Positions 23,822 through 43,630 of a stretch of DNA of 64,000 nucleotides are shown here, piece by piece. Every line of letters starts with the position of its first letter. Position 1 is the stretch's first letter. The position numbers and the translations under genes were made by a program. The notes beneath the pieces were generated by a model. It did no database searches. It was not told where the DNA came from and was given only the letters and a program-made list of their open reading frames with translations. The stretch covers positions 74,428 through 138,427 of the forward strand of contig JAVBPW010000005.1 in assembly GCA_031549385.1 (NCBI GenBank). Reading direction: 5' to 3'. This DNA comes from Alphaproteobacteria bacterium (GTDB lineage Bacteria; Pseudomonadota; Alphaproteobacteria; Rs-D84; SZUA-605).

Positions 23822-24706
23822 TTATTTAATAATTTTAACTTCTTTTAAAGTGTAATGGAATTCTTCCACGTGTCTTTGAATATCGTTTAAATCTTTATAA
23901 TTGCAATATCCTCCAGTTATTAAAACTCTTAAATCCTTATAAAGATTTATAGTGTTTTTTGCAAAATCAACATATTTAATAAGTTCATTCATAAGGTTTG
24001 TAAAATAAAAATATGGATTTGATTCTTGTTCGCTTGTTTCTGTAATATATTCGTCGTAATCACCATAATCACTAAAACCCTGCTCATGTGTCACAACAAC
24101 TTCTGGTTTATCAACTACTACATTTAATCCATATAATCCAGTTCTCAATAAACTATAATGTATTTCATCTATAATATGATTGCTAGAAAATCCATAGGAT
24201 TGTTTTAATTTAGATATAATATCTTCCCATTTTTGCTTTTCTAATTTATACTGTTTAAGATCATTTTCATGTTTTTGTAAATCTTCCTTATTATATTGAT
24301 AATTATATTCATACTTTTTTGGTTCTTTTGGAGCTGGATTTCTATCTTCCCATATATCCAATGCAATGACTTTTATCTCTTCATCCGATAAAGAATCTAA
24401 TACATTCGCAAATCGTAAAAAATTCGGTGCTGATAGTTGTTTATTATTACCCAATCCTTGAACTAATCGACAAATAAGACGAAAATTATTTTTTGCTGTC
24501 CCTTCAGAGATAGCTCGCCAAAGTCTGTGTGCAATTCCTATGGTGTCGTCTGTATTTATATTATCAAAAATACCATCTCTAACTTCCATCAAGTAAATTG
24601 ATTGTGCTTCTTTTATCCTTTTTTCACGCCAAGTAGATATAAGAACGTCAGCAGTTCCACCATACGGGACAATAGAAGTTATTAAATCAATAGCATTTAT
24701 ACACAT
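23822..24706 (-). CDS. Hypothetical protein, possibly Abi-alpha/DUF4393-like
   Basis: IVPYGG N-terminus and FANVLDSLSDEEIKVI helix pattern; adjacent to the island end. Confidence 0.45.
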   Translation of the reverse strand: MCINAIDLITSIVPYGGTADVLISTWREKRIKEAQSIYLMEVRDGIFDNINTDDTIGIAHRLWRAISEGTAKNNFRLICRLVQGLGNNKQLSAPNFLRFANVLDSLSDEEIKVIALDIWEDRNPAPKEPKKYEYNYQYNKEDLQKHENDLKQYKLEKQKWEDIISKLKQSYGFSSNHIIDEIHYSLLRTGLYGLNVVVDKPEVVVTHEQGFSDYGDYDEYITETSEQESNPYFYFTNLMNELIKYVDFAKNTINLYKDLRVLITGGYCNYKDLNDIQRHVEEFHYTLKEVKIIK

Positions 24707-24831
24707 TTTTTATTTCTATGTTTTTTATTTTATTATAAAGTGTAAATAATTATTTTTCAATCTTTATCCAAAATTTTCTCAAAAAGAGTCCGAAGAGAAC
24801 TCTATATAATTTATGAATTTAAAATTCAGAT

Positions 24832-24858
24832 AAAAAATCGTCCTTAAGGACGTTTTTT
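24832..24858. terminator. Terminator following the tRNA 3' fragment
   Basis: A6-T-CGTCCTTAAGGACG-T6 palindrome. Confidence 0.7.
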
Positions 24859-24859
24859 A

Positions 24860-24877
24860 TGGTGCCGGCACACGGAC
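24860..24877 (-). repeat. 18-bp copy of the tRNA-Thr 3' end
   Basis: TGGTGCCGGCACACGGAC, identical to 25021-25038 and 38310-38327. Confidence 0.9.
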
Positions 24878-25020
24878 GTCCTCGGTTTTTAAGAACCTGC
24901 GGGCTCCTCATACGAATTGAAAATTCTACTCGTCGGGCAAACCTGCCTAATAAGTACTTCGGGGTGAAAATTCATGTTTGATGAAACAATAAAAAAAGCA
25001 AAATAAAGTTGCTTTTATTA

Positions 25021-25066
25021 TGGTGCCGGCACACGGACTCGAACCGCGGACCTGATGATTACAAAT
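25021..25066 (-). repeat. att site: 46-bp duplicate of the tRNA-Thr 3' half
   Basis: Exact match to 38310-38355; identity ends at the anticodon loop. Confidence 0.95.
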
Positions 25067-25170
25067 GGCGACCCCGCCATAATCCATAAAAACTCACAAC
25101 AAATAATAATAGCAAAAACAAATATTTACAATATTAGTGTTTTTATATGGTTTTGGGAATTGTTATGTTT

Positions 25171-25202
25171 TTTGCCCCAAACTGTCCCAAATTTGCCCCA
25201 AA
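25171..25202 (+). repeat. Putative integrase arm-binding repeats (left)
   Basis: TTTGCCCCAA-ACTGTCCCAA-ATTTGCCCCAAA; 25181-25202 is identical to 38220-38241. Confidence 0.7.
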
Positions 25203-25204
25203 AT

Positions 25205-25720
25205 TTATGATATACCCAACTGTTGAATAACTGGTTTGTAGTAATTTTGTTTCTCAGTTTCAAAAATATCACACACTATATTAGTCTTTTGTTTCCTTTG
25301 GGCTTCTAACTTCAAATTTCTAATTTTTTCTAAATCTTCATATAAAGAATTATATTTACCCGTAGGCAATTGCGCAATTGCTTTAAATTTATCTTTTGAG
25401 TGGTAAGTAATAACATCATTTATATTCAAAAAATCAGGTTTTGAAATATCTATGTAAGATGTTTTAGTTAAATATTTTTTAGTATCTATATTATTTTCCC
25501 ATTCATGATTTTCTACAACTATTGAAGATAGTTTTATAACACTATTGGTTTTTGTCAGCACAAAAAATATCAATACTTCATCCAATAAGATATGTTTGGA
25601 AAAAAATAATTTATATTTATCTTTTTCTTTTTTTGTATACATATCAACCGAAGACAGGTGAAAATACACTGTATTAATTTTAATAAAATATTGAAGAAAT
25701 AAATCTGGCGTAAACATCAA
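25205..25720 (-). CDS. Putative toxin partner of the Panacea antitoxin
   Basis: Overlaps the stop of the upstream Panacea-like gene; no firm family assignment. Confidence 0.55.
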   Translation of the reverse strand: MMFTPDLFLQYFIKINTVYFHLSSVDMYTKKEKDKYKLFFSKHILLDEVLIFFVLTKTNSVIKLSSIVVENHEWENNIDTKKYLTKTSYIDISKPDFLNINDVITYHSKDKFKAIAQLPTGKYNSLYEDLEKIRNLKLEAQRKQKTNIVCDIFETEKQNYYKPVIQQLGIS

Positions 25721-26184
25721 ACTAATGACAAATCCAATTTAACACCTATATTCTCAGTTCCACCTAATGTCGCATTTAAAGCTCTCATAGGTGCTGTTGT
25801 ATAAGTCAATTCAGTTAAATTTTTTGGACCATAGCCATGTAAACTATCCAGAACTTCTTTAACTATTTCAGATTCTTCTTTTGAAAAAACAGTAGAATCA
25901 TCTAACGCATCATTCAAAGCGTATAAAACAATCTCATCACCTCTTGGGCCAAATTCTGTATATGTTGAGATATTACCATTTTTCTGCATTTCTTTCAAAT
26001 CAATATAAACTCTTTCATCAAAAGGACCATAGTTATATCTTATATATTCAAAATTAGAAATTTTATTTTTTAATCTCCTTGTAGCAACTAAATCTATCAT
26101 ATAACAAAGCTTTATTATACTTGTTATTGTTTTATCTCCATCTTTTAATATAGCAGAAATAAGACATTCATGTTTTTTGCACAT
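25717..26184 (-). CDS. Panacea (SocA/DUF4065) antitoxin
   Basis: IIKLCYMID...YNYGPF...LTELTY pattern. Confidence 0.8.
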   Translation of the reverse strand: MCKKHECLISAILKDGDKTITSIIKLCYMIDLVATRRLKNKISNFEYIRYNYGPFDERVYIDLKEMQKNGNISTYTEFGPRGDEIVLYALNDALDDSTVFSKEESEIVKEVLDSLHGYGPKNLTELTYTTAPMRALNATLGGTENIGVKLDLSLV

Positions 26185-26397
26185 AACTTTCTCCTTGATG
26201 CTGATTATATCATATTTTCACTCTCATGTAAATAGATTCAACCGACAATTGTATTTTTAATGATAATATTTAACTTTGCAATAGGAAATTATTGCAATAA
26301 AAAAAGGTTACAGAAATCCCCATAACCAAAAAACATTATACTATAAAAATTATAAAAAGTCAAGTAAATAATTGTCTTTGACATACTTTTGCATATT

Positions 26398-26874
26398 TTA
26401 TTTTGTACTTATATAAACATCTCTAATAAAAGGTAATCTTGTTGAATATCTCTTTATACAATAGAAAGTTAAATACACAGATTTTTTTGATTTTAATAAA
26501 AATAGGATTTTGTTCATAAGAATATTAGGTAATGTTATAAATCCATCTATATTATGCTTTTGGCCATAAAAACCACCTAGGACATAGTCATTTCTTTTAT
26601 CTCTTTCCTTTTCATATTCTTCAAAACTTATAAATCTTCCCTTATCATCATCAAAATATGTGTGTTTATCTCTATCAGACATAAATTCAGCTCTTATATA
26701 GATTTTGAATATATCTCCTATTGAAAAGCTTTTTGTTTTAAAATCATTCTCTATAAGTTCGGCCTTTAATTCAATTCTTTCAGATATACAATCAACCCCT
26801 TCTTTCTCATACTTATTATAATCTATAGTATAATCAAAATTCCTCACAAGAAAAGTTAATTCGAAATTATTCAT
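26398..26874 (-). CDS. Hypothetical protein, paralog of 31775-32185
   Basis: Starts 3 bp after the res stop; LGGF and PFIRDVY motifs shared with the paralog. Confidence 0.7.
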   Translation of the reverse strand: MNNFELTFLVRNFDYTIDYNKYEKEGVDCISERIELKAELIENDFKTKSFSIGDIFKIYIRAEFMSDRDKHTYFDDDKGRFISFEEYEKERDKRNDYVLGGFYGQKHNIDGFITLPNILMNKILFLLKSKKSVYLTFYCIKRYSTRLPFIRDVYISTK

Positions 26875-26877
26875 CGT

Positions 26878-29640
26878 CTACTGAAAGCACTCTTTAAAAT
26901 CTTTTTCAAATCTATTTTCTTCTTTAGAATTATAGAAAGGTATTCCTATTATTTCATATAACTGCTCTCCAAATTCAAAAGTAATAGGCTTATTTTCAAC
27001 AAACCTCTCTTTTATTGACTTAAGCATATTATTCTTCCAATCATCTTTTAATTCAATATGAGCACCTTTAGGTTCTATCAAAACTTGATATTTTACAGTC
27101 TTTTTATTCTTATCTCTCAAGAATAATAAGAAGTCAGGACAAAATCCTTCACCATCGTCAAAATTATAGATTTTATAAACTTCTTCGTTTCTAACTAAAT
27201 AAATATCTGAATAACCTTTTTCTTTAAGATAACTATAAATTTTATGATCAAAAAATTTAACAAAGGCTATTTCTTCACTAGTTCCATGTAAAGAATTATA
27301 AGGGAACCATTCTTTACCTTCTACTAAGTCTTTATTATCCTTTATTCTATTATCGTCTTTTTTGATTTTTAAGGTTTTATTCGTAAATAAACCTTTTAAA
27401 AGCTCTTTTTCTTTGAAATATTCTGTCCCTTGATATAATGTAGTATATCTATCAAGTTTCTTTTCTATATCATTTAAAAGGTACCTTAAAGCTCTAAAAA
27501 TTTCAGTTTGTATGTTTTTAAATACCTTTACGCTATCAACTTCATTTTCAATAAAAAAGTCTTCACCATTTCTAATAGATTTATCATAAGCTTTAACAGC
27601 TAACAAATCAGAATTATCTCCAAAAAAACTAATATCTAAAGTATCAAGATAGTTTTTCACAAATTCCTTTGTTGATTTAATCCTAGGAAATTTTTGTTTT
27701 AAGTTATGAAAATCGTAGAAATTATTATAAAGCATAGCATTTAGCTTCAAATTCATAGACAGGTCGCTTAATTTTATATCAATAAGGCTAGTTGATAATG
27801 CTTCTCTATCAATTTCTCTTTTATCTAGCATAACTTCATCAAAAATAACACCTGAAGGTATTTTATATTCAAAATTTCTTTTATTTTCACCATAAGGCAA
27901 TCTATCCCAAAGATTAAATCGATCATATCTCTTTTTGATCTTTTTGTTTGATAGAACAATTTCTTTTCTCCAAAAATCTGTAACTGCTATCTGAGTTTTA
28001 ATTGAAATTTCTTTTTCTTCATAATCATTAGGAGAATCTTCCCAGCCTTGATTTATAAGTTCTTCATGCAAACTAGCAATAAATGAAGAATTATAAACAG
28101 AATGATAATAAAGTTCTTCAAGTATCCTTAATTCATCAGTATCTTTAGGCTTATCAAATTTTCTTCTATATTTATCTAAATTAGAATAAACAACTTCTTC
28201 ATCATTATCATCTTTAACTACAAAAGGACAATATCGTGCTCCACGACCAATAAGCTGAGCTTCCGATACAGTTTGTTTCTTAGTAACATCTTTTGTCTTA
28301 GTTAAATGAATTTCTTCGTCGTAAAGCCTTACAATATCAAAAAGATTAAGAACATCCCAACCTTCATTAAGCTTATTAACAGCAAAAATAACTCTTATCT
28401 GATTATTATCATCTTCAAGAGAATTAAGTAATTCTTCTTGATTTCTAACTTCTTCAAGTTCCTTTTGAGATTCAGATTCATTAACATTTAATTGTTTAGT
28501 TCTTCCAAAGTTCCATTTAAGAATGTCTATTAAATATCTATAATTATCTTTTTTTTCTTTAAAATAATTAAAAGCATCTTTTAATCTTACACTATCGGAT
28601 TTCAATACTTCTCTTTCAATTTCTTTAATATCATCAGCAGACAAATTATAAAGGAGTTCATTAAACATATCCTGATTTGCAAAACTTTCCTTAATAGACC
28701 TGTTAGACTTAAATAATATAACAGGTTTTATATCTAATTGATTTCTCATAGCAATTTCTTGTTTATATTGGTTAAAAACAATAGCCTGAATTATAAGATT
28801 TTTCTTTTCCACATCTGATTGTAAAACTAATATTTCTTTTGAAAATCCATCATTTCTAAATTCTTTAATATCATATTTGTAAATAACTTTGTCTTTATAT
28901 TTTTTATAAATTGCAGCATTATCAAATTCAAAAGTAGCAGATAATTCAAAGAACATATTTTCACTATTTGCTTTTAAAATATCATTGATAGTATTTTCCC
29001 AATTTTTAGTATTCCATAAGTCTTGTTCTGATTTTTGTTTAGTATTTACATTAAAATGATGAGCTTCATCTCCTATAATAACCGTTTTATAATTTTTAAA
29101 ATCTTCAAAAGTTATTTGATTTTCACCTACATTCTGCATTTTTGAATGGAGGCCATTGATAGTAGTAAAGCAAATATTTATATCTTCTTCTGAAGATTTT
29201 TCAAAATTTTCTACTTCTTTTACATATACTTTTTTATTATTTATTACTATATCTGTATTAAAAAGATATTTCCTTGAAGACTTATCTAAAAAATTATCTC
29301 TTGTTTTTTCAATAATTTGACGGGCTGTAGAAAAGAATAAGAAATTTCTAAATCCTCTTTCATACATATAAAGTATAATTCCAGCCATTATCAGAGTCTT
29401 ACCAGAACCAGTCGCCATATTAAAAGCCAAATGATTGCTCTTTTCAGGAAACAAAAGACCATCCTCATCTTTTTCCATATAATAAACAAGTCTTTTTAAT
29501 GCTTCATTTTGATAAGCTCTTATTTCAAAATCTTGTTTTAAATTCTTTTTAACAGATAGGGGCAATTCAACCTTAGAAACAATATGTTCCCTTTCCTTGA
29601 AGGCATTATCTATTTTAAAAATAAGTTCTTGTTTAGCCAT
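26878..29640 (-). CDS. res: Type III restriction endonuclease Res subunit
   Basis: MATGSGKT, DEAHH, SAT, LNEGWDVLN, QLIGRGAR; C-terminal PDF...EPKG nuclease motif. Confidence 0.92.
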   Translation of the reverse strand: MAKQELIFKIDNAFKEREHIVSKVELPLSVKKNLKQDFEIRAYQNEALKRLVYYMEKDEDGLLFPEKSNHLAFNMATGSGKTLIMAGIILYMYERGFRNFLFFSTARQIIEKTRDNFLDKSSRKYLFNTDIVINNKKVYVKEVENFEKSSEEDINICFTTINGLHSKMQNVGENQITFEDFKNYKTVIIGDEAHHFNVNTKQKSEQDLWNTKNWENTINDILKANSENMFFELSATFEFDNAAIYKKYKDKVIYKYDIKEFRNDGFSKEILVLQSDVEKKNLIIQAIVFNQYKQEIAMRNQLDIKPVILFKSNRSIKESFANQDMFNELLYNLSADDIKEIEREVLKSDSVRLKDAFNYFKEKKDNYRYLIDILKWNFGRTKQLNVNESESQKELEEVRNQEELLNSLEDDNNQIRVIFAVNKLNEGWDVLNLFDIVRLYDEEIHLTKTKDVTKKQTVSEAQLIGRGARYCPFVVKDDNDEEVVYSNLDKYRRKFDKPKDTDELRILEELYYHSVYNSSFIASLHEELINQGWEDSPNDYEEKEISIKTQIAVTDFWRKEIVLSNKKIKKRYDRFNLWDRLPYGENKRNFEYKIPSGVIFDEVMLDKREIDREALSTSLIDIKLSDLSMNLKLNAMLYNNFYDFHNLKQKFPRIKSTKEFVKNYLDTLDISFFGDNSDLLAVKAYDKSIRNGEDFFIENEVDSVKVFKNIQTEIFRALRYLLNDIEKKLDRYTTLYQGTEYFKEKELLKGLFTNKTLKIKKDDNRIKDNKDLVEGKEWFPYNSLHGTSEEIAFVKFFDHKIYSYLKEKGYSDIYLVRNEEVYKIYNFDDGEGFCPDFLLFLRDKNKKTVKYQVLIEPKGAHIELKDDWKNNMLKSIKERFVENKPITFEFGEQLYEIIGIPFYNSKEENRFEKDFKECFQ

Positions 29641-31493
29641 TATTTAATCCCATAAAAATCTTTATTTAACTTTATATCTTTATCAGACAATTCAAATTCC
29701 TTATCTTCAAGTTGAGATATAACTTGATAAAGCATATTCATATTTAAATATCTTAAAAGTAAATCTTGCAAATCTTCAAAAGGAAGATTTTTCAAATCTC
29801 CTTTATTTCTTTCAGTTTCAACTATGTTTACATCATAATTTAAGAAAGCATTATTTTTCATATCTTCATAAATTTTTAATAAATCTTCCTTACTTTTACA
29901 TTCCTGCAACATATCAATGTAAAGCTGATTAATTTTATTCATTTCCATATAAACAAAATCTCCACCACTTTGCCAATTAACAGATTTAGAAATTCCACCT
30001 TGCTCACCATCAAGAACCTTTTCTAATCGTTTTTTAGTAACAGTTTCAATATAATCCATTTGCTCCACACCAATCCATTGTCTTTTCATTTTATGGGCTA
30101 CCGATAACGTTGTTCCAGAACCAACATGAAAATCTAAAACTATATCATTATCATTAGTAGACATTTGAATTATATTTTGAAGTAATTTTTCAGGTTTAGG
30201 AAAAGAAAATACTCTTTCTCCAAATAAACCTTGTATATCTCTAGCTCCTATCTGATTACTTCCATATTCAAGTCCCCATAGATCTGAAGGTATTTGCCCA
30301 TCATTTAATTTTTCATCTAAATAAATTTTCCCATAAGGCTGTCCATTTTCTCCTCCAGCCCAATATAATTTACCATTCTTTCTTAATTCACTAAAATCTT
30401 CTTCTTTTACCATCCAAGGACCAGACAATAAACCTCCTCCTGGAGTTGAAATTTTATAAGAGTATCTACCTTTGACTTTATCTAATAAAATATTTCTTCT
30501 AAAAAAACCTTTCTCATCAGAATAACGATATTCATTTTTTGCCTTATCTGATAAAGGTAATTTTGAAAAATTATAACTTTTTTCATTTTTTGCAAAGATT
30601 GTAATATATTCCTTTACTCGTGCTATTTTTCCAATATTAGATTGGTTGTCTGTTCTTCTCCAAACAATATTTATTATGAAGTTTTCCCTTCCAAAAATCT
30701 CATCCATTAAAATTTTTAAATAAGCCTGCTCATTATCATCACATTGAACAAAAATAGTACCATCATCCCTTAATAATTCTTTTGCTACTTCCAATCTATT
30801 TTTCATAAACGTAAGCCACGTAGAATGATTAAAATTATCATTATATTTAAAACCATCATTTCCTGTATTGTATGGAGGATCTATATAAATAAGCTTTACC
30901 TTTCCTCTAAACTCTTTTTTCAAAGAATGTAAGGCTAGAAGATTATTTCCCTTAATTAACAAATTATCAGTTATAGTTCCTTCAGAGTTTCGATTAAAGC
31001 TTTTTAATTCCTCTTCTTTTCCTTCTCCAAAAATTCTTTTGAAATTAGTAAAGACCTTAGCTTCTTCTAATTTTGTAATTTCATCTCTAGCAAGAGTTAT
31101 ATTAAAGAAAATTTCCTTTTTTTTGTTTTCTTCATTACTTTGACCACCTTCCAGTATACAATCCTTATAAGGCCAAACTAAAACAACCTCTTTATCAAGA
31201 CATTCTTTAATATTAAAGCCTATTTTATTTTTGAATTTAGTATATGAGTTATCCAAAAAGTTTTTATCTTTCAAGTAATCCATAAAGAAGTCTTGTTTGA
31301 AAATTTTTACATTATCTGCTAAATCAACAAAAAATTCTTTATTAAATTCTTTATCCTTTAAAAGTCCATTTATTAAATCTTTATCATAAGAATAGGCATC
31401 TTTAATAACCCTATCCTTTAACAGCTTCCCTTCAGTAGATTTATATTTTTCAAAAGACATTAAAAAGTTAACTAACTTTTCATTAAAACTCAT
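29640..31493 (-). CDS. mod: Type III R-M N6-adenine methyltransferase Mod subunit
   Basis: IYIDPPYNTG, PKPEKLL, DFHVGSGTT; TAATG coupling to res; start MSFNEK after AGGAAGG. Confidence 0.92.
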   Translation of the reverse strand: MSFNEKLVNFLMSFEKYKSTEGKLLKDRVIKDAYSYDKDLINGLLKDKEFNKEFFVDLADNVKIFKQDFFMDYLKDKNFLDNSYTKFKNKIGFNIKECLDKEVVLVWPYKDCILEGGQSNEENKKKEIFFNITLARDEITKLEEAKVFTNFKRIFGEGKEEELKSFNRNSEGTITDNLLIKGNNLLALHSLKKEFRGKVKLIYIDPPYNTGNDGFKYNDNFNHSTWLTFMKNRLEVAKELLRDDGTIFVQCDDNEQAYLKILMDEIFGRENFIINIVWRRTDNQSNIGKIARVKEYITIFAKNEKSYNFSKLPLSDKAKNEYRYSDEKGFFRRNILLDKVKGRYSYKISTPGGGLLSGPWMVKEEDFSELRKNGKLYWAGGENGQPYGKIYLDEKLNDGQIPSDLWGLEYGSNQIGARDIQGLFGERVFSFPKPEKLLQNIIQMSTNDNDIVLDFHVGSGTTLSVAHKMKRQWIGVEQMDYIETVTKKRLEKVLDGEQGGISKSVNWQSGGDFVYMEMNKINQLYIDMLQECKSKEDLLKIYEDMKNNAFLNYDVNIVETERNKGDLKNLPFEDLQDLLLRYLNMNMLYQVISQLEDKEFELSDKDIKLNKDFYGIK

Positions 31494-31542
31494 AGTATTC
31501 CTTCCTTTTCTAAAATTAAAAATGTCGCTATTTTTAAGTAGC

Positions 31543-31616
31543 GACTGGAAGTTGATAACTACATTAGGGTAGCCCATCATATTTGCATAGATGCTTATTT
31601 TGACAGCCTTCCAGTC
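31543..31616 (-). ncRNA. C4/CI-like antisense RNA
   Basis: 9-bp closing stem GACUGGAAG/CUUCCAGUC; GCAA-tetraloop hairpin; GCUAC-CCUAAU-GUAGU hairpin; UAUCAA bulge. Confidence 0.6.
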
Positions 31617-31651
31617 ATAATAGACCAGAGGCATACAAATTTCGTTTTGTA

Positions 31652-31740
31652 CAAAAAACGCCTAATGGGGAGTTATCACGCTCCAATGCAAGAACTCCTT
31701 GCATCAAGAAAAGAGTAAAATAATTTGAATTATAAGTCAA
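31652..31740 (-). promoter_or_regulatory. Sigma70 promoter plus a1/b1-like target leader of the C4-like RNA
   Basis: TTGACT-17-TACTCT; GGAG-CGTGATAA-CTCC hairpin, then CATTAGG, then a U tract. Confidence 0.55.
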
Positions 31741-31774
31741 TCGTTTAGTTATTTGAGATAAAATACCTAAACTA

Positions 31775-32185
31775 TCAATTCAATTTTAATCTATAATATA
31801 CCTCTCTAATTGTCGGAAATTTATTACTTTCACTTATACAATGAAATACTAGATAAGGTTTCTTCTCTGAAGATAATAGCAAAAGCAAATTTTCAAGAAA
31901 TTCCTTAGAAATACTAACCATACAATCGACTATTCTTTGAGTTACACAAAATCCACCCAGCGAGTTTATATCATTCCCATTTACACTGTTTCCTACAAAT
32001 AAATTAATGTTATACAAACAACCTATATTTAACCTTTTATTCTTATAACTACTATTTATCAAATTACATTGTAGGTTTAAAGTTTCAGAACTTCTTCCTT
32101 TTCCCAAGCTTTTTATGTAATCACAACAAACATCCCAATTTTCAATCTTAAAAATCATTTCATGGTACTGAATTTTATTTCTCAT
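31775..32185 (-). CDS. Hypothetical protein, paralog of 26398-26874
   Basis: GGAGGG SD; LGGF and PTIREVY motifs. Confidence 0.7.
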   Translation of the reverse strand: MRNKIQYHEMIFKIENWDVCCDYIKSLGKGRSSETLNLQCNLINSSYKNKRLNIGCLYNINLFVGNSVNGNDINSLGGFCVTQRIVDCMVSISKEFLENLLLLLSSEKKPYLVFHCISESNKFPTIREVYYRLKLN

Positions 32186-32783
32186 CTTTCCCTCCATTAT
32201 ATTTTAAATTTTCATCATATAAAAAGCCTTTTTCAGTATACCAATACGAGGTTTCCTCTCTATTATTACCATAACCATATTTAGGAGCTAACATATTATG
32301 CTTTTCCAACCATATTTCTTTTGAAACTTCAGATATCTTAATCTTTTCGTTTATTCCTAACCACTTCATAATCTTTTCATTGAAATGCTTAATTCTAAGC
32401 TCTTGTCTTTTCAATTTATGTATTAACTCAACTTTCCATTTCTTAGCTGCTTCCAATTTATTATTAAGACTTATAAGCTTTTTTTTATTTTTACTAATTT
32501 CTTCAGTACTTTCTTTCTCTATTTCCAAATCTTCTATCCTTTTCTCACAAGAAGTTAATTTTTCACAAAGTTTTAGCTCTGTCATTTGCAACCTATAAAG
32601 TTTTCCTGAATAATGCTCTATCAATTCTTCTATAGATACTTGAGAAATACTTGCTTCACATTCTTTTCCTTGAATCTTTTCTGCTTCCTGATCCAGCCAC
32701 TCCTCCTTTGATTTACATTCGATTTCAGCTTTATCTTGAAGTTTATTTCTATAAAGTTCTTCTTCTGTGGGTTTAAATGCCAT
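32175..32783 (-). CDS. Coiled-coil hypothetical protein (island)
   Basis: GGGAG SD; heptad-rich; overlaps the next gene. Confidence 0.7.
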   Translation of the reverse strand: MAFKPTEEELYRNKLQDKAEIECKSKEEWLDQEAEKIQGKECEASISQVSIEELIEHYSGKLYRLQMTELKLCEKLTSCEKRIEDLEIEKESTEEISKNKKKLISLNNKLEAAKKWKVELIHKLKRQELRIKHFNEKIMKWLGINEKIKISEVSKEIWLEKHNMLAPKYGYGNNREETSYWYTEKGFLYDENLKYNGGKDEK

Positions 32784-32928
32784 TTCTCCCTCCTTCACGT
32801 ATGCCTGTCTGTTGATTTGTAAATATTAAATATTTAAAGTAATTTTTGATTTTGTTAAATTTTAAGATAAATCTTATATAACAAGGGACATTCTGGCTTT
32901 CTAGCCATATTTTATAATTAAAATTCAT
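32773..32928 (-). CDS. Small hypothetical protein (island)
   Basis: AGGAG SD before ATG 32928; fills the operon gap. Confidence 0.4.
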   Translation of the reverse strand: MNFNYKIWLESQNVPCYIRFILKFNKIKNYFKYLIFTNQQTGIREGGRNGI

Positions 32929-32941
32929 GATTATCTCCTGA

Positions 32942-33151
32942 TTATATATTTGCTTTATCAACCCAGCGAAAAAAAGCTTCTACATCTATAAAAATTTTCT
33001 TTCCAATTCGTTTAATCGCTTTTAATTCTCGCAATCCATTAAATTGTTCTTTAAATATATAACTTCTCATCCCACCCATAGTAAAAGCTGGAAAGGTTTC
33101 TATAAACTGATTTACAGTCATTAAATTTGGTAAATTATTGTTTTCTGTCAT
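32942..33151 (-). CDS. Excisionase-like small DNA-binding protein
   Basis: LMTVNQF...RIGKKIFIDVEAFFRWV wing motif; downstream of the integrase. Confidence 0.7.
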   Translation of the reverse strand: MTENNNLPNLMTVNQFIETFPAFTMGGMRSYIFKEQFNGLRELKAIKRIGKKIFIDVEAFFRWVDKANI

Positions 33152-33239
33152 AATTTTTACTCCATTTATTAGTTATCAAGCAGATTCGTTATCTGTTAAT
33201 TACGATTATGGAATAAAAATATTTTTTAATCTTTGGGAT

Positions 33240-33914
33240 TTAAGCTATATGTTTTTGCTGGGTTTTAGCCCAAAGTTTTCTCTTTTTAACTCTATCGCTA
33301 AATCCAATGGTTATATTATGTCCATTTTTTAAATTAGGACATTCTTTATTTATAATATTTACTATATCCTCTCCAAATTTTACAAATTTACTCTTATGAA
33401 TACCTTCAATATTACCAGCAGTTGGATCTTTTCCTGTTGCTTGCTTATAAATATCCATAAGCTGTCCTGCAAATTGCTTTTCATTTGCATTATAACTAAG
33501 AGGGGAATCTTTTGTTCTATGATTAGAAATTTCCTTTTCAATTTCTTCTATGGCTACATTTATAGCCAATCTACATTCTTCAGATCCTTTTATTAAACTA
33601 AAGGCACTAACATCGACATTGTCTCCCCACATTCCTTTAGCTTCATTTAAAATCCTACTAAAGTGAAATACTAAATAATGATGGATATCTGGGGAATTTA
33701 ATAAATCTAATAATTCATCATTGCTTTTCTTAATTTTTTTAAGTTTCTTTAAACAATTTCTTTTAGAAAAATTCTCTTTATAATAATCAATAATAAAAAA
33801 ACCAATATCACTGTTTAATTCATGGTTTATTTTATTAATATCTACTTCTTTTTGAATTTCCAAAAAATCTCTTATATCAAGGTTAAATTGAGGAATTGTA
33901 TATAACCCAACCAT
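33240..33914 (-). CDS. Hypothetical protein downstream of the integrase
   Basis: Starts 3 bp after the int stop. Confidence 0.7.
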   Translation of the reverse strand: MVGLYTIPQFNLDIRDFLEIQKEVDINKINHELNSDIGFFIIDYYKENFSKRNCLKKLKKIKKSNDELLDLLNSPDIHHYLVFHFSRILNEAKGMWGDNVDVSAFSLIKGSEECRLAINVAIEEIEKEISNHRTKDSPLSYNANEKQFAGQLMDIYKQATGKDPTAGNIEGIHKSKFVKFGEDIVNIINKECPNLKNGHNITIGFSDRVKKRKLWAKTQQKHIA

Positions 33915-33917
33915 CTT

Positions 33918-34976
33918 TTATTCTCCAAATATCTTTTTATTCATTTTTTCTACTACTGATTGCTTATGCTTGTCTGATAAATGAGCATATCGCTTAACCA
34001 TAGCCAAGGTTTTATGCCCCAATATATCTGCTATTTCACCCAGCGATGCACTGTTCATTATTAAATAGCTTGCTGCTGTATGCCTTAAATCATGAAATCT
34101 GAAATCATCCAACTTAGCGTTTTCAACCGCTTTCTCCCAACTTCTCTTAATATCAAAAGGAGCTAATCCATTCTTGCTAGGAAATACATAAGGTGAATTT
34201 TTTCTTTTTTCATAAAGCTCTTGCAAAACCTTCAAGGCTGAACTTACCAATGGAATACTTCTTCGTTCTCCATTTTTAGTATCTTGTAAAATAGCTCGCC
34301 TTTCTTCAAAATCCACATTATCCCAAGTAAGCGATAAAACTTCCATCTTGCGAGCCCCGGTAGACAACGCCACCACAACCACAGGATATAAATAAGGATT
34401 TTCTGCTTTCTGAGCCTCTTCTAATAAAGCCTTTCGTTCCTCATCAGATAAATATCGAACTCGTCCTCTGGGCTCTGACAATTTACTAACTTTTGCCATA
34501 GGATTAACTTCTATCCATTCCAAATCCTTAAAAGTATAAGTCATAACTGAACTTAAGGCTGCCAGATAACGATTAAGAGTAGCTGGTCCCTTAGCATGTT
34601 TATCTTTATGCTTAACTTCCGCTATCTTATTCCTACCTTCGTTTATAATAGCAGGAGTTATTTGAGATAAAGTATAATCGCCTATAAACTTTTTCCATAA
34701 TTCCAAATAAACTTTATAAAACCTTTCAAGCTTAGGTCGTTCAGGCAACTTATTTTCCATATATTTATCGATAGCTTCTGCCAAAGTATGCTGTTTGGCC
34801 TTCAAATGAGAAAAGTATTTGTCTTCTCTTATCATATTTTCAGTTTTTGCAGCCCAACTCTTAGCATCTGTCAATTTAGAAAATGTTTGAGAAATATCAG
34901 GAGCTCCAACCATTCGGATACGAACTCTATACTGACTATCTCCATTTATCCCTTTTCTTTTTTCAATACTCGCCAT
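33918..34976 (-). CDS. int: Tyrosine integrase
   Basis: Catalytic set TGAR, TKNG, FHDLRH, LGHK, RYAH; N-terminal arm-binding-like domain. Confidence 0.95.
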   Translation of the reverse strand: MASIEKRKGINGDSQYRVRIRMVGAPDISQTFSKLTDAKSWAAKTENMIREDKYFSHLKAKQHTLAEAIDKYMENKLPERPKLERFYKVYLELWKKFIGDYTLSQITPAIINEGRNKIAEVKHKDKHAKGPATLNRYLAALSSVMTYTFKDLEWIEVNPMAKVSKLSEPRGRVRYLSDEERKALLEEAQKAENPYLYPVVVVALSTGARKMEVLSLTWDNVDFEERRAILQDTKNGERRSIPLVSSALKVLQELYEKRKNSPYVFPSKNGLAPFDIKRSWEKAVENAKLDDFRFHDLRHTAASYLIMNSASLGEIADILGHKTLAMVKRYAHLSDKHKQSVVEKMNKKIFGE

Positions 34977-35773
34977 TATTCAATAATCCCAGTTTGTTTT
35001 AAAGCAGCATTCCAATTATTCATCTCGTCATTTATTGGTAGATTTAAATAATCCGGGCTTCCACCAGTTGTTATCAGTCTCATAGTTTTAAAAGCCTCTA
35101 ATGTCATTTCTGTAAAATCAACCACATCTATATTTTTAACATCATAACTTCTAATTTCTATATTATGAGCAATAGCCTTATTTCGCATTATTTTTATTTT
35201 TTTCCAAATCTCTTCTTTATTATCCTTATTTAAAATAAAATTTAAGTTTCTAAAATAAACATTCCTAGACATTCCCCAAAAAGGAAGCTTCTTAATAAAA
35301 TAAGATCCCAAACCATCAATATATATCTTTTTTTTCCATTTGTTATTAGATCTATCCCTTTTAAATTTTCTAAAAATATTTGGAATAGAATTTACATCTT
35401 TGCTATTTTCTTCCCAAATTTTACATAAAATAACAGAAATATTTTGCATCATAGAACCATAAATATAATTCAAAACAAAAACGTGTTCTGAAGTTTTATT
35501 TGCATCCATAAACGAACTATATATTCTTAAAAGAGTTGAAACATTATAAATATCTCGCTCTATTTGATTTAACATAATTCTAATAGATTCTAAGCCTTTT
35601 TTTTGTTTTAAATTTAATGAATTATCTAACCTTATATTAGATAACCAACGAATACGTTGCTCTTTAAACCTTTCTGTATAAAAGCTTATTTCATCTTTAC
35701 TTAAATCATTACTATTTATGTAAATTTTAAATTGTTTATAAGTCCAATCCATTGAAAATGATATCGACTTCAT
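34976..35773 (-). CDS. HEPN-domain protein (AbiU2-like)
   Basis: RNKAIAH HEPN-type motif; ILCKIWE...NSI helix; TAATG overlap with int. Confidence 0.65.
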   Translation of the reverse strand: MKSISFSMDWTYKQFKIYINSNDLSKDEISFYTERFKEQRIRWLSNIRLDNSLNLKQKKGLESIRIMLNQIERDIYNVSTLLRIYSSFMDANKTSEHVFVLNYIYGSMMQNISVILCKIWEENSKDVNSIPNIFRKFKRDRSNNKWKKKIYIDGLGSYFIKKLPFWGMSRNVYFRNLNFILNKDNKEEIWKKIKIMRNKAIAHNIEIRSYDVKNIDVVDFTEMTLEAFKTMRLITTGGSPDYLNLPINDEMNNWNAALKQTGIIE

Positions 35774-35903
35774 TTTTTACATTCCTTATATTTATTTTAT
35801 ATATAATAACCTACAACACAAAATAACAAATAGCAACAATAATCATAAGGCCAAATATGATAAGTCTCATAAAATACAGCGCTTTTATGATATAATTCTT
35901 ATT

Positions 35904-35924
35904 TTTGGGGCAATTTGGGACAGT
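35904..35924 (-). repeat. Inverted internal copy of the arm-like repeat
   Basis: Reverse complement ACTGTCCCAAATTGCCCCAAA, a 1-nt deletion relative to the terminal copies. Confidence 0.8.
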
Positions 35925-37043
35925 TTATTTCAAAATCTTCTTAATTAGAGGACTGTGTATTTTATAAGAATTGATACTTTCTTTAATCTGTTCTAATATC
36001 AATTGGGCAGATACTAATGATAAGCCTATATTTTTAGCCACAGCAAGCATATCAACTTCAGTTATATTCTTACCTTTTCCATTTACCATAGTAGCACGTT
36101 CTCCAAAATTTAAGCTCTTTGAATAAACTAAATCATAGGCAGGTGATAATTGCCATTTATTGTCTTTATATAAGAATGCAAAGTTTTTAGAATGATCGTC
36201 TTCATTACCAGCCAACACATTAAAACACATCAAGCGATACATTTTTTCTACTTCACGCATATCTTTAGTCAAATCAAAGGTCAATCTCATCAACTCATTA
36301 TAATCCAATATAGGCGTTCTATGAGAAGAATTTAAAAGCCCCGCAACAGAAATCATAAAAACTTTTTTACCATCAACTCTATCAAATCGTTTCGTAGCAA
36401 AATACTTATCTTCAATTAAATTTATATCACTCATTTCAATCATACAATCATGAGCCATTTGCGAATATTTAAATTCTATTTCACCAATATTTTTGGGATC
36501 ATTTGATGCTGGAAATTTAACTATCCAATCTTCACCATTGATAGGTACTAAAACTTTAGGTCTAGCACCACCAGAAGAACCACCAGCGGTTACTAATTCT
36601 TCTAACTTACCACTTTGTTCTTCATTTAAAATCTTTTCAGCTTCACGAGCCAACACATCAAAACTATCTGAAATCTCTTTATTCGTTAAAGGCTCTGATG
36701 GTATATATTCCAAAGCACCAGCCCCAGTATTACCAACAATAGCTAATCTGTCTATAATTGACACACTCGCTGGATCAATTCCTTGTTTTTTTAAAAGTCT
36801 ATCCGTAAGCAATCGTCCCCAACCATCAGGCAAAGAGTCATTAAACACTCCAAAATTTCCATCAAATGGATATTGCGGAGCTATAAAAACCTTCTTTTCC
36901 AAAGGCAATTGATATGGAGATATAGAAAATCCATTCACTAACCATTCAGGCGAATATTGAAAAGCACAGAGACCATCTTTGGTTAAAGCTAACTCTCCAA
37001 CCTTACGTCCATCATAAATAACAGATACAAACTTATTTTTCAT
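35925..37043 (-). CDS. hipA: HipA-family serine/threonine kinase toxin
   Basis: DSLPDGWG, SSGGARPK, GNEDDHSKNF, LSPAYDL. Confidence 0.92.
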   Translation of the reverse strand: MKNKFVSVIYDGRKVGELALTKDGLCAFQYSPEWLVNGFSISPYQLPLEKKVFIAPQYPFDGNFGVFNDSLPDGWGRLLTDRLLKKQGIDPASVSIIDRLAIVGNTGAGALEYIPSEPLTNKEISDSFDVLAREAEKILNEEQSGKLEELVTAGGSSGGARPKVLVPINGEDWIVKFPASNDPKNIGEIEFKYSQMAHDCMIEMSDINLIEDKYFATKRFDRVDGKKVFMISVAGLLNSSHRTPILDYNELMRLTFDLTKDMREVEKMYRLMCFNVLAGNEDDHSKNFAFLYKDNKWQLSPAYDLVYSKSLNFGERATMVNGKGKNITEVDMLAVAKNIGLSLVSAQLILEQIKESINSYKIHSPLIKKILK

Positions 37044-37293
37044 TTATCACCTCTTCAATAGATTGATAATTCTTGCGTTTGAATAATTGATTAAAGTCAT
37101 CTTCATAACCTAAAACAGAGGCTATTTTTAATAAAGAGCTTAGTGAAATTTCACCAATATTTTCAAATCTTCTGATACTGCCAAAACTAACACCGGATCT
37201 GTTAGCAAGTTCCATTTGTGAAATCTTCGCCATCTTTCTAGCTTCCTTAACCCTTTCAACCAAATTTTGCTTAATTGCTAATATATTATACAT
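37033..37293 (-). CDS. XRE-family HTH antitoxin (HipB-like)
   Basis: SQMELANRSGVSFGSIRRFE; overlaps the hipA start. Confidence 0.85.
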   Translation of the reverse strand: MYNILAIKQNLVERVKEARKMAKISQMELANRSGVSFGSIRRFENIGEISLSSLLKIASVLGYEDDFNQLFKRKNYQSIEEVINEK

Positions 37294-37333
37294 TTTACCT
37301 CTTTTTATTATTCAATTGTTAATATATTATACA
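37279..37333. promoter_or_regulatory. Twin putative operators
   Basis: TAATATATTATACA at 37279 and 37320, each containing the palindrome TAATATATTA. Confidence 0.5.
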
Positions 37334-37382
37334 AAAACTATATGATAAAGTAAAGTACTATTTAATACACGAAGGAGCAGGT

Positions 37383-38129
37383 TTACAATCTACTTAACCC
37401 CGTTTTCAAATCATAGTGCTTTTCATATATGTAGGTTAAAAAGGCAATAGCTTTATCTGTTATTACAATTTTACCTTGCTTGTCTTTAAGTATAAGATTC
37501 ATATCTATCATATACGAAACCCATTTATTATAATTAACATCAATTTGCCATTTTCGTTCATTTTTTTCTTTGTTGAAAAATGAATGCATCTTATAAGCAG
37601 TAGAAGTTTTATTTTTTTCTGACATTAAAAAATCTAAGAATGCTATCTGGCTTCCAAATATAGAATAATAAATTTGTTCAAATTCTGTAGACATTCTAAA
37701 AATAGCGTCATCTCTAATCAAAATATCTACTTCATGAAAAGGGTTTTGTTTTAATTGTTTCTTTACATCTAATATAACCTTTTCAAGGTATTTTTTATAA
37801 TTATTTTCTGGATATGGGGGCAAATTAATCCTTTTACGATTTCTTTTTGAAGGAGCATATTCTGTTTCATTTAGTTCCCCAGGAAGAGAATCTGTTATAT
37901 GCGGTCTTTGTTCTAAAGGCTCCGCAGTTATCTTTCCATCTTTGTATCCAAATTTTGTTTTGCATAAAATTGAAATTAAAGTTTTTCGCAAACAAATAAA
38001 AACAACCAATGCAACAACAGGCCAGCTTGTTAGAAGCGGAATTGCCACTCCTTTAATAAAATAATCCAATCCTTTTCCTAACTCTACAATAACGATACAG
38101 GTTTCTTCCATATTCATTCCTTTTTTCAA
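37383..38129 (-). CDS. TM-anchored hypothetical protein with possible C-terminal winged helix
   Basis: SWPVVALVVF TM; FEQIYYSIFGSQI; ITDKAIAFL. Confidence 0.7.
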   Translation of the reverse strand: MKKGMNMEETCIVIVELGKGLDYFIKGVAIPLLTSWPVVALVVFICLRKTLISILCKTKFGYKDGKITAEPLEQRPHITDSLPGELNETEYAPSKRNRKRINLPPYPENNYKKYLEKVILDVKKQLKQNPFHEVDILIRDDAIFRMSTEFEQIYYSIFGSQIAFLDFLMSEKNKTSTAYKMHSFFNKEKNERKWQIDVNYNKWVSYMIDMNLILKDKQGKIVITDKAIAFLTYIYEKHYDLKTGLSRL

Positions 38130-38210
38130 TTACAACTAGAATTTACAACATACATAAAAGAAAAGCAAGGTTCATAATTAATTATACAGAGTTGTCCCAT
38201 ACTGTATTTT

Positions 38211-38241
38211 TTTACCCACACTGTCCCAAATTTGCCCCAAA
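38211..38241 (+). repeat. Putative integrase arm-binding repeats (right)
   Basis: TTTACCCACA-CTGTCCCAAA-TTTGCCCCAAA. Confidence 0.7.
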
Positions 38242-38309
38242 TGATAAAGTCGCACATACAAACAAAAAATCCAAAAGTTCTTAAACTTCTGGATTTTCAA
38301 TGTTTTTAG

Positions 38310-38385
<76 letters not shown>

Positions 38386-43405: not shown

Positions 43406-43493
43406 GGAAGGGTCGCATAGTGGTCTAGTGCACTCGCTTGGAAAGCGAGCAGGTGTTACAGCCTCGGAAGTTCGAATCTTCTCCCTTCCGCCA
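43406..43493 (+). tRNA. tRNA-Ser(GGA)
   Basis: CTCGC-TTGGAAA-GCGAG anticodon arm, long variable arm, CCA end. Confidence 0.96.
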
Positions 43494-43553: not shown

Positions 43554-43630
43554 GGGTTTGTAGCTCAGTTGGTTAGAGCAGGCCGCTCATAACGGTCTGG
43601 TCGCAGGTTCGAGTCCTGCCAAACCCACCA
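43554..43630 (+). tRNA. tRNA with CAT anticodon, probably Ile2 (lysidine)
   Basis: GGGTTTGTAGCTCAG...CTCATAA...CAAACCCACCA; paired G1-C72, so not an initiator. Confidence 0.9.

Follow-up and report, generated by a model that had tools for sequence, protein, structure and literature searches.

In phages, prophages and integron cassettes, C4-type antisense RNAs serve, as single copies, in immunity. We describe here the leader of a type III restriction-modification (R-M) operon, mod-res, located in a 64,000-nt stretch of contig JAVBPW010000005.1 from an alphaproteobacterial genome (assembly GCA_031549385.1; this whole stretch is referred to as the window, all coordinates are those of the window, and the leader is read on the minus strand), in which this design appears to be rewired. 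The leader belongs to an extensive and so far unannotated family of C4-like structured RNAs in gut Alphaproteobacteria and, on balance, is likely to be a self-contained RNA switch, made of a divergent phage-type C4/sRNA-Xcc1 module and an upstream partner of the a1/b1 kind.

One example of the known systems is the immI region of phages P1 and P7. The phage P1 record annotates a1, b1, c4, a2, b2 and icd, with a1 and b1 labelled "putative." Judging by this annotation, by the Rfam C4 and c4-a1b1 alignments and by the sequence, a1 is placed in a 4-bp hairpin, within its 8-nt loop, and 3 nt further on comes single-stranded b1; the closing stem encloses two hairpins, of which the second carries b' (CACUAAC) in its 12-nt loop, and a' (CUGUCAA) is the 7-nt strand that joins this hairpin to the 3' side of the stem. 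Another example is the CI RNA of phage P4, a processed leader RNA that base-pairs to sites on the nascent RNA made from its own promoter and so brings about premature termination. A third example is IsrK of the Salmonella prophage Gifsy-1, for which pairing in cis with downstream RNA has been reported to produce an inactive fold, and a short IsrK to act in trans on a read-through isoform (PMC4825925). The fourth is sRNA-Xcc1 (Rfam RF02221), from integron cassettes, prophages and islands of Proteobacteria, reported in integron cassettes upstream of symE (10.1101/2025.06.18.660453), in Xylella in tandem and also beside C4 and isrK matches (PMC12189769), and as an 88-nt RNA on a Northern blot (PMC2996969). 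In the published passages on sRNA-Xcc1 that were available, no statement of a C4-type arrangement was found.

The leader of the mod-res operon

The features of the leader and of the operon are as follows, all on the minus strand.

31712 to 31740: promoter-like TTGACT (31740-31735), 17-nt spacer and TACTCT (31717-31712), by reading of the sequence
31685 to 31705: H1, a variable 5' hairpin (GAUGCAAG...CUUGCAUU), present in the minimum free energy (MFE) fold
31669 to 31684: H2, a 4-bp hairpin GGAG-CGUGAUAA-CUCC with an 8-nt loop, by reading of the sequence
31678 to 31671: box a, UGAUAACU, spanning the H2 loop and 3' arm, by reading of the sequence
31661 to 31667: box b, CAUUAGG, single-stranded, 1 nt past H2, the exact complement of 31568-31562
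31633 to 31660: hairpin H3, CGUUUU/AAAACG (31660-31643), followed by UUUGUAU (31639-31633), by eye and by an energy test
31623 to 31632: 5' strand of helix P0, GCCUCUGGUC, which mimics the 3' strand of the closing stem and pairs with 31616-31606 in the MFE fold
31543 to 31616: 74-nt C4/sRNA-Xcc1-like unit closed by GACUGGAAG/CUUCCAGUC, by reading, fold and covariation
31616-31608 with 31551-31543: helix P1, the closing stem of the 74-nt unit
31606-31602 with 31578-31574: helix P2, inside the unit
31594-31585: helix P3, inside the unit
31572-31559: helix P4, inside the unit
31568-31562: b', CCUAAUG, in the P4 loop, the exact complement of box b (31667-31661)
31560-31553: a', AGUUAUCA, in the joining strand J4/1, the exact complement of box a (31678-31671)
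31512 to 31545: intrinsic terminator, GUCGCUA/UAGCGAC (31545-31524) and a U-rich run, from a terminator call
31491 to 31505: Shine-Dalgarno sequence (SD) GGAAGG (31505-31500) and mod ATG (31493-31491), by reading of the sequence
29640 to 31493: type III mod, 617 aa from ATG 31493 (Pfam N6_N4_Mtase, 7e-51; TypeIII_RM_meth, 2.7e-16)
26878 to 29640: type III res, 920 aa (Pfam ResIII, 6.8e-28)

The box pairs, the H2 hairpin, the 74-nt unit, the terminator and the SD are all read where the original prediction, made from the letters of the window, had placed them. As to the promoter, the two hexamers and the 17-nt spacer that it named are present, but the consensus scan does not list them, because TACTCT matches the -10 consensus at 3 of 6 positions only; in many relatives, TTGACA/TATAAT-like hexamers are seen by eye, uncounted, at the equivalent positions. 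The H1 position is likewise taken, in L002 and further loci, by a hairpin of differing sequence (by eye), and UUUGUAU is able to pair with the loop and 3' arm of H3. The hairpin and U run proposed to compete with the 3' end of the unit are the only terminator-like site called in 31200-32300, where shuffles give 0.1; the first 3 nt of this terminator are the last 3 nt of helix P1. The SD, 7 nt 5' of ATG 31493, is complementary to CUUCC in the 3' strand of the same helix. In agreement with the expectation that mod has no promoter of its own, the promoter scan called no minus-strand promoter between the 74-nt unit and the mod ATG.

An in-frame ATG at 31634 lengthens the mod open reading frame (ORF) to 664 aa, through the structured leader. 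These 47 codons are leader and not Mod, since the same RNA precedes unrelated genes, and the 664-aa ORF is thus an annotation trap, in which longest-ORF gene callers would mis-start Mod by 47 codons. It is exceedingly improbable that the complementarity is fortuitous or that the region is simply coding sequence for an N-terminal extension of Mod: while the longer ORF is open and in frame, the RNA recurs before unrelated genes and shows covariation of the RNA type (below), an SD stands 7 nt ahead of ATG 31493, and, when the 220-nt leader is shuffled by mononucleotides, an exact nested 8+7 bipartite complement returns in only 2 of 5000 trials. The box pairing is not due to chance. The 74-nt unit folds at -21.6 kcal/mol (z = -2.96), and the 228-nt leader, in a fold that pairs the boxes in cis, at -64.9 kcal/mol (z = -4.45).

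A family of leaders in gut Alphaproteobacteria

A BLAST search of the genome that the window comes from (G000, hereafter the own genome) revealed a second copy before an RgpF-like gene, 82% identical over the unit and terminator, in which both boxes are changed and compensating changes are present (by eye). A BLAST-type search of relatives gave one clear homologue (L010) and a few short matches; L003-L008 and L013-L017, tried as homologues, were dropped as weak chance matches. When genome_contigs was searched with a pattern of the conserved core, 40 stretches were returned, and almost all carry titles of metagenome-assembled genomes of uncultured Alphaproteobacteria, from guts and rumens. A covariance model, R1, was built from a hand-drawn structure on an alignment of 42 distinct sequences, with the exact duplicate L052 dropped. 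This model finds 3 copies in the own genome and, at E ≤ 0.001, has matches in 127 of the 151 genomes of the order, at least about 770 in total, with up to 17 candidates scored per genome and several genomes reaching 17. The copies are chromosomal, and a genome of about 1 Mb may carry at least 17 of them by R1 or up to 27 by sub-threshold matches to RF02221. Annotation pipelines that rely on the Rfam cut-offs miss all of the copies. In the literature searched, no description of this alphaproteobacterial family was found, and the main text of PMC8040213 makes no mention of Alphaproteobacteria.

The two further copies in the own genome, L060 (G000:C7:166467-166631) and L002 (C7:171591-171762), are 5 kb apart and differ in the type of helix P1; one precedes a lipoprotein-like gene and the other the RgpF-like gene, and the interval between them holds an integrase gene as well as a tRNA-like 3' end that has a terminator of its own. 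We have set aside a host factor that would read the P1 sequence, because the own genome carries both types. Tandem copies occur in relatives. One example is L082 (1481-2203, minus strand), where three tandem 241-nt units, each with promoter, leader and terminator, precede one 97-aa ORF. The three share an identical framework and differ only at a, b, H3, L4 (the P4 loop) and J4/1, a pattern that suggests selection for private addresses, which would be expected if the RNAs can meet in trans or within one read-through transcript.

Covariation of the boxes and of the alternative helices

For covariation, 73 R1 matches from 66 loci were aligned (A3), leaving out the near-duplicates L020, L021, L035, L044, L047 and L052, the repeat stretches L001, L009, L058, L059, L061, L063 and L064, and the weak BLAST loci listed above. 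The check for covarying boxes in homologous leaders bears the prediction out, with strong covariation of both box pairs across the 73. Duplexes of the H2 loop with J4/1 average -6.29 kcal/mol for cognate versus -2.41 for non-cognate partners, and those of box b with L4 average -8.30 versus -2.55; for the latter, fewer than 5% of non-cognate partners pair as well in 89% of the leaders. In the crossed controls on the same leaders (the H2 loop with L4, and box b with J4/1), the cognate advantage is absent. The H3 loop with the strand that follows it provides modest support, mainly from window-type copies (-4.51 versus -2.36 kcal/mol, with 71 of the 73 leaders usable). H3 covariation is also seen by eye in window-type copies; H3 was kept out of R1 and tested by duplex energies because the MAFFT alignment A2 is ragged there, and H3 in its first drawing reaches only 55% pairing in it.

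The nested helices (H2, P1, P2, P3, P4 and the terminator) are paired in 97.1% of cells in A3, an alignment fitted to them, and 23 of their 29 pairs change on both sides; none of 500 shuffles reaches any of five measures, and slid controls are 33-55% paired. For H2, P1, P3, P4 and the terminator, an unfitted MAFFT alignment agrees. In H2, pairing reaches 98%, and all 4 pairs change on both sides. Inside the unit, covariation supports P2 (CUGUC/GAUGG), which encloses a conserved internal loop (AAAAUAAG / AAAUAU) and the small P3, whereas the GCAA-tetraloop hairpin that had been drawn in this place is not the fold of the family. The junction nucleotides AAAAUAAG and AAUAU are invariant in 42 of the 42 window-type copies.

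Other helices are alternatives to these. The P0 strand covaries with the type of helix P1 (CUGGAAG or UUGGAG), the same-type pairs being worth -13.9 and -11.3 kcal/mol versus -8.9 and -5.4 for the cross-type pairs. The terminator stem takes in the last 3-4 nt of P1, and the shared columns covary with both alternative partners: columns 225 and 226 of A3 pair with their P1 5' partners as CG 47/UA 23 and AU 29/GC 27, respectively, and with their terminator 3' partners as GC 27/AU 22 and UA 31/CG 27. As the terminator shares the last nucleotides of P1 and as P0 pairs with its 5' strand, P1 excludes both P0 and the complete terminator. Covariation thus shows the a:a' and b:b' pairings, helices P0 to P4, the terminator and these exclusions, and the wiring of the leader is that of an anti-antiterminator, an antiterminator and a terminator, with mutually exclusive covarying helices of which one is an intrinsic terminator, as in attenuators. 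The SD follows the type of P1: GGAAG is found before 22 of the 43 genes behind window-type leaders versus 1 of the 24 behind leaders of the other type, and in the own genome the SD matches its own P1 type in 3 of 3 copies. An integron attC site was also considered and ruled out: the copies are scattered, each with its own promoter, and covariation of a pseudoknotted RNA type fits an RNA and not a DNA hairpin.

Genes behind the leaders

Of the 73 leaders, 71 are followed by an ORF of 45 or more codons whose start lies -5 to +98 nt past the match (automatic, uncurated calls). By a crude test of the N-termini, 53 of the 71 are signal-peptide-like, 14 are pilin-like (GRSxxE), and 55 are either. 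A Pfam scan of 51 of these proteins, with near-duplicates, cut or very short ORFs and the window mod left out, found a family for 17 of them: outer-membrane beta-barrel (3), PEGA (2), PilS/Bundlin pilins (2), RHS (2), and, once each, glycosyltransferase, RgpF, D12 DNA methyltransferase, BamE-like, BspA leucine-rich repeat, phospholipase D-type (PLD) nuclease, helix-turn-helix, and a weak Ephrin_rec_like match. With the window mod included, R-M methyltransferases make up 2 of the 52 downstream proteins examined. As the downstream genes are varied and so few of them are R-M methyltransferases, the leader is generic to these bacteria and not R-M-specific. The original prediction had an antisense RNA co-opted for R-M. 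This part of it is not sustained, because at least 70 further genes among those examined, most of them coding for exported proteins, have the same leader in front of them.

The proposal had been that a processed trans-acting RNA of about 75 nt, similar to P1 C4 or P4 CI and recruited for R-M, would let mod-res be expressed in an initial burst in a naive cell and would silence the operon afterwards. A number of observations would suit it: the C4-type topology of the boxes, the tandem copies in L082 that differ only at the pairing boxes and H3, orthogonal addresses being expected if the RNAs meet in trans, the position of the operon on an integrase-bearing island beside a tRNA, the presence of another leader before a D12 DNA methyltransferase gene, and the RCC that sister copies have after the closing stem, as do C4 and sRNA-Xcc1. 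However, besides the scarcity of DNA methyltransferases among mostly exported proteins and the chromosomal, multi-copy nature of the family, the targets such an RNA would act upon are not seen. In the 120 nt downstream of 72 leaders no a2/b2 partner was detected (-9.76 kcal/mol for cognate versus -9.20 for non-cognate pairs); that no such copies are visible at mod had been conceded at the outset, and their absence is a family-wide feature. The own genome contains no further exact a-b site, and for two units the same is true of G063. A relaxed search (up to 2+1 mismatches), in an own genome of 30.5% G+C, gave dozens of chance matches, none of them convincing. The same downstream test does detect a partner in 14 bona fide sRNA-Xcc1 loci from a sample of the phylum (in which 24 of 151 genomes have RF02221 matches above the cut-off), at -19.3 versus -15.4 kcal/mol. 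The upstream a/b boxes are also present in these 14 loci (-30.2 versus -22.6 kcal/mol), and in four of them, L096, L102, L103 and L104, a2 is found by eye directly preceding the SD and b2 in the SD-ATG interval, with each of them matching the upstream a/b boxes and the unit loops. We therefore regard a trans-acting timer as unlikely, and neither the processed RNA nor the burst-then-silence course is supported; the earlier interpretation as a whole is supported in part.

A metabolite or ion riboswitch, in which the boxes would be tertiary contacts of an aptamer and P0, P1 and the terminator an ordinary expression platform, deserves mention, given the invariant junction, the three long-range contacts with a three-helix junction, the classic antitermination logic and the tandem copies, which some riboswitches also show. 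On the other hand, no metabolic theme is apparent among the downstream genes, the unit is similar to a known class of antisense RNA, and recent tandem duplicates differ only in their pairing boxes, which is unexpected for neutral tertiary contacts; neither a known aptamer nor ligand-linked genes were recognized, and there is no match to any Rfam riboswitch family. This explanation appears very unlikely.

Possible kinship with the C4 and sRNA-Xcc1 models

The Rfam cut-offs are 45 bits for C4 (RF01695), 46.7 for c4-a1b1 (RF03163) and 53 for sRNA-Xcc1 (RF02221), and the first two form clan CL00128. The closest model is sRNA-Xcc1. In the own genome, copy L060 matches RF02221 at 37.4 bits (E = 0.0043 in 44 kb and 2.2e-5 locally, with eleven other loci scanned), with the whole model aligned and the architecture the same. 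In 5 of 5 genomes of the order examined there are 54 RF02221 matches, of 24.5-46.4 bits, none of them above the cut-off, and at least five coincide with R1 matches; among control genomes, 2 of 14 have RF02221 matches at E ≤ 1. The C4 model has no matches at E ≤ 10 in the own genome and two weak ones, of 17.8 and 19.9 bits, in the 5 genomes of the order, while it gives phage P1 c4, the positive control, 68.8 bits. For c4-a1b1, 11 weak matches of 13-24 bits are found in G126, where 4 of the 11 precede an RF02221-like match on the same strand by 55-125 nt; such weak matches are also common in the controls (10 of 14 genomes). Kinship to C4 and sRNA-Xcc1 would thus be transitive only, leading from window-type copies to sister copies through R1, and from these to sRNA-Xcc1.

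The isrK model (RF01394) aligns, at 35.1 bits, to the phage P1 a1b1 hairpins and the hairpin that follows (L091 1381-1475; P1 48217-48311), and therefore corresponds to the 5' module. This match overlaps c4-a1b1, of clan CL00128, and isrK and sRNA-Xcc1 show no clan, even though sRNA-Xcc1 loci have the full a1/b1-unit-a2/b2 layout. These families seem related, yet Rfam does not unite them in one group.

A proposed switch in the mod-res leader

The following sequence of events can be envisaged. Transcription from the promoter near 31740 would make H1, H2 with box a, box b, H3 and the P0 strand in turn, and then the 74-nt module (with b' in the P4 loop and a' in the joining strand), the terminator, and an SD complementary to the 3' strand of P1. 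By default, the boxes would capture the loops of the module in cis and P0 would hold the 5' strand of P1, so that the terminator could form and the SD could be masked, leaving mod-res off or low. Should the module close via P1, the terminator would lose 3-4 of its 7-8 pairs, the SD would be freed, and transcription would read through into mod-res. What tips the balance may be a free copy of the module acting in trans on boxes a and b, as with P1 C4, P4 CI and IsrK, or else a protein, a ligand or folding kinetics.

Pseudoknot-free folding places the terminator state below the P1 state in 73 of 73 leaders, by 11.9 kcal/mol on average, with P0 included in 69 of the 73 and the long-range a:a'/b:b' helices in all 73. 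These models suggest that termination is probably the default state and that the box contacts in cis may add to it. That the terminator state is favoured at equilibrium would also be consistent with a stand-alone, terminator-capped small RNA gene with targets elsewhere, of which mod-res merely receives the read-through; each copy has its own promoter and strong terminator, every tandem unit included, and sRNA-Xcc1 is seen as a discrete RNA on a Northern blot (PMC2996969). Against such an RNA gene, a separate mod promoter is not called and would have no room, an ORF begins within about 100 nt in 71 of 73 cases, the SD covaries with the P1 type, the P1/terminator overlap covaries as well, and no other bipartite target was found in the genome. 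We assign it a low probability.

Several points weigh against the leader being a self-contained switch of C4 descent. The window copy itself is matched neither by RF02221 nor by c4-a1b1 (which also has no match in the own genome), nor by C4, whether at the gathering score or at E ≤ 10 on 31400-31850, and near the leader the window has no Rfam match at gathering scores or at E ≤ 10 at all; the check with the C4 and c4-a1b1 models to which the original prediction had pointed thus went against it. As the models miss the window, homology with C4 is a chain of links along with a shared architecture, and convergence with C4 may be the explanation. The fitting of A3 concerns its nested helices, and the box pairs and P0 are unaffected by it. 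The P1/terminator overlap in the window is of 3 nt only, and the background for GGAAG (26 of 677) comes from one genome, the own genome, and from crude ORF calls. When boxes a and b are made unavailable in the computed folds, 63 of the 73 leaders still prefer the terminator state (by 4.4 kcal/mol on average) and P1 wins in 10, and therefore blocking of the boxes alone does not predict read-through; a rule of "free box off, occupied box on" was tried and is unsupported by the nested energy models. The ON state, according to these models, would need further input beyond box blocking. The energy models ignore pseudoknots, so they do not decide whether a:a' and b:b' coexist with P1. Finally, no RNA run is listed for 29600-33000, and two metatranscriptome runs (X2 and X3) have no coverage of 31200-32000, where only the DNA run X1, possibly the source, has reads; these runs are uninformative on expression.

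Taken with the covariation, the self-contained switch is still the reading that we favour, and it is probable that a type III R-M operon on a mobile island is held here under an RNA-controlled terminator. A bolder and rather doubtful idea is that the family comprises orthogonal, self-addressed antisense switches, each leader with a private a/b address, feedback in trans, and ON and OFF states that would be heritable with no change in DNA. If true, this would amount to RNA-based phase variation of contingency genes, such as pilins, Opa-like outer-membrane proteins, lipopolysaccharide/glycan transferases and a type III mod ("phasevarion"), and would reveal the role of the phage P1 a1/b1 sites, long unexplained.

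Neighbouring genes

The mod-res operon shares an island with genes for an integrase, an AbiU2-type HEPN protein and HipA and with a tRNA gene, the defence-island context extending over 23822-38385 of the window.

25717-26184: SocA/Panacea antitoxin-like ORF, with a 171-aa partner
33918-34976: integrase
34976-35773: AbiU2-type HEPN protein
35925-37043: HipA, with a small ORF overlapping its start
38313-38385: tRNA
43406-43490 and 43554-43627, plus strand: two more tRNA genes, of which the former has a long variable arm

Two paralogous ORFs, 31775-32197 and 26398-26874 (both on the minus strand; 140 and 158 aa, 27% identical, E = 8e-15), flank mod-res, the first directly upstream of the leader promoter and the second directly after res. 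Pfam gives no family for the 158-aa ORF and, for the 140-aa ORF, only a weak TPR_CCP1_N match under its cut-off. These proteins may be a third component of the R-M system or of the island.

Comparison with known systems

By sequence and structure model, the closest relative is sRNA-Xcc1, with scores of 37.4 bits for L060 and up to 46.4 in relatives. The shared layout includes a 9-bp closing stem, a first hairpin with an AAUA/AAUAA internal loop, a second hairpin and a joining strand; the stem is followed by GCU in the window copy, not by RCC as in its sister copies. sRNA-Xcc1 is also placed, in the accounts available, upstream of the gene that it accompanies, with tandem arrays possible. Differences are that bona fide sRNA-Xcc1 loci carry a2/b2 flanking the SD and the window family does not, that they have (by eye) a terminator-like hairpin between b1 and the unit and no P0/P1/terminator wiring, and that all matches in the genomes of the order that were examined are below 53 bits.

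The two-box layout was likened to that of phage P1 C4 from the start, and the positions of the four boxes do agree: H2 loop, box b, P4 loop and J4/1. H1, H2 and box b correspond to c4-a1b1, a hairpin followed by a 4-bp hairpin with a1 in an 8-nt loop and by single-stranded b1, and the unit corresponds to C4, with two hairpins in the closing stem, b' in the loop of the second and a' before the 3' strand. The order is the same in both, from promoter and hairpin through the a-hairpin, single-stranded b and a further hairpin to a long-stem module with two hairpins, and the module is of similar length, 74 nt in the window and 77 nt in phage P1 (according to the record annotation and a title in a reference list). 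Unlike in phage P1, the window family has no a2/b2 at the ribosome-binding site of the downstream gene, adds the P0 mimic strand, pairs the SD with the closing stem, and has its terminator after the module and overlapping the closing stem, while the terminator-like hairpin of phage P1 is found between b1 and c4; it is also chromosomal, multi-copy and not placed before antirepressor genes. As only the a1/b1-type sites are kept, and as these are labelled putative in the phage P1 record, the family presents a clean system for testing the a1b1:C4 contact.

IsrK is the best-studied case of the cis/trans logic proposed for the window leader. It differs in that the isrK model has no match on the window, that IsrK acts on the translation of a small ORF, coupled to an antirepressor-like gene, and not on a terminator located after a C4-like unit, and that it is single-copy and resides in a prophage. 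P4 CI, cited as a lead only, would have an RNA-controlled terminator in its own leader. With riboswitch, T-box and trp-type attenuators, the leader shares three mutually exclusive helices that decide read-through and an SD that can be masked, but no known aptamer, leader peptide or tRNA-binding feature and no Rfam match are found in it, and where classical attenuators have a sensor, the window leader has an antisense-RNA module with its own decoy-like sites. Compared to all these systems, the C4 design appears here to have lost its a2/b2 target, to have gained a closing stem that is an antiterminator as well as a partner of the SD, and to have been multiplied into general leaders for surface and accessory genes across an order of uncultured gut Alphaproteobacteria.

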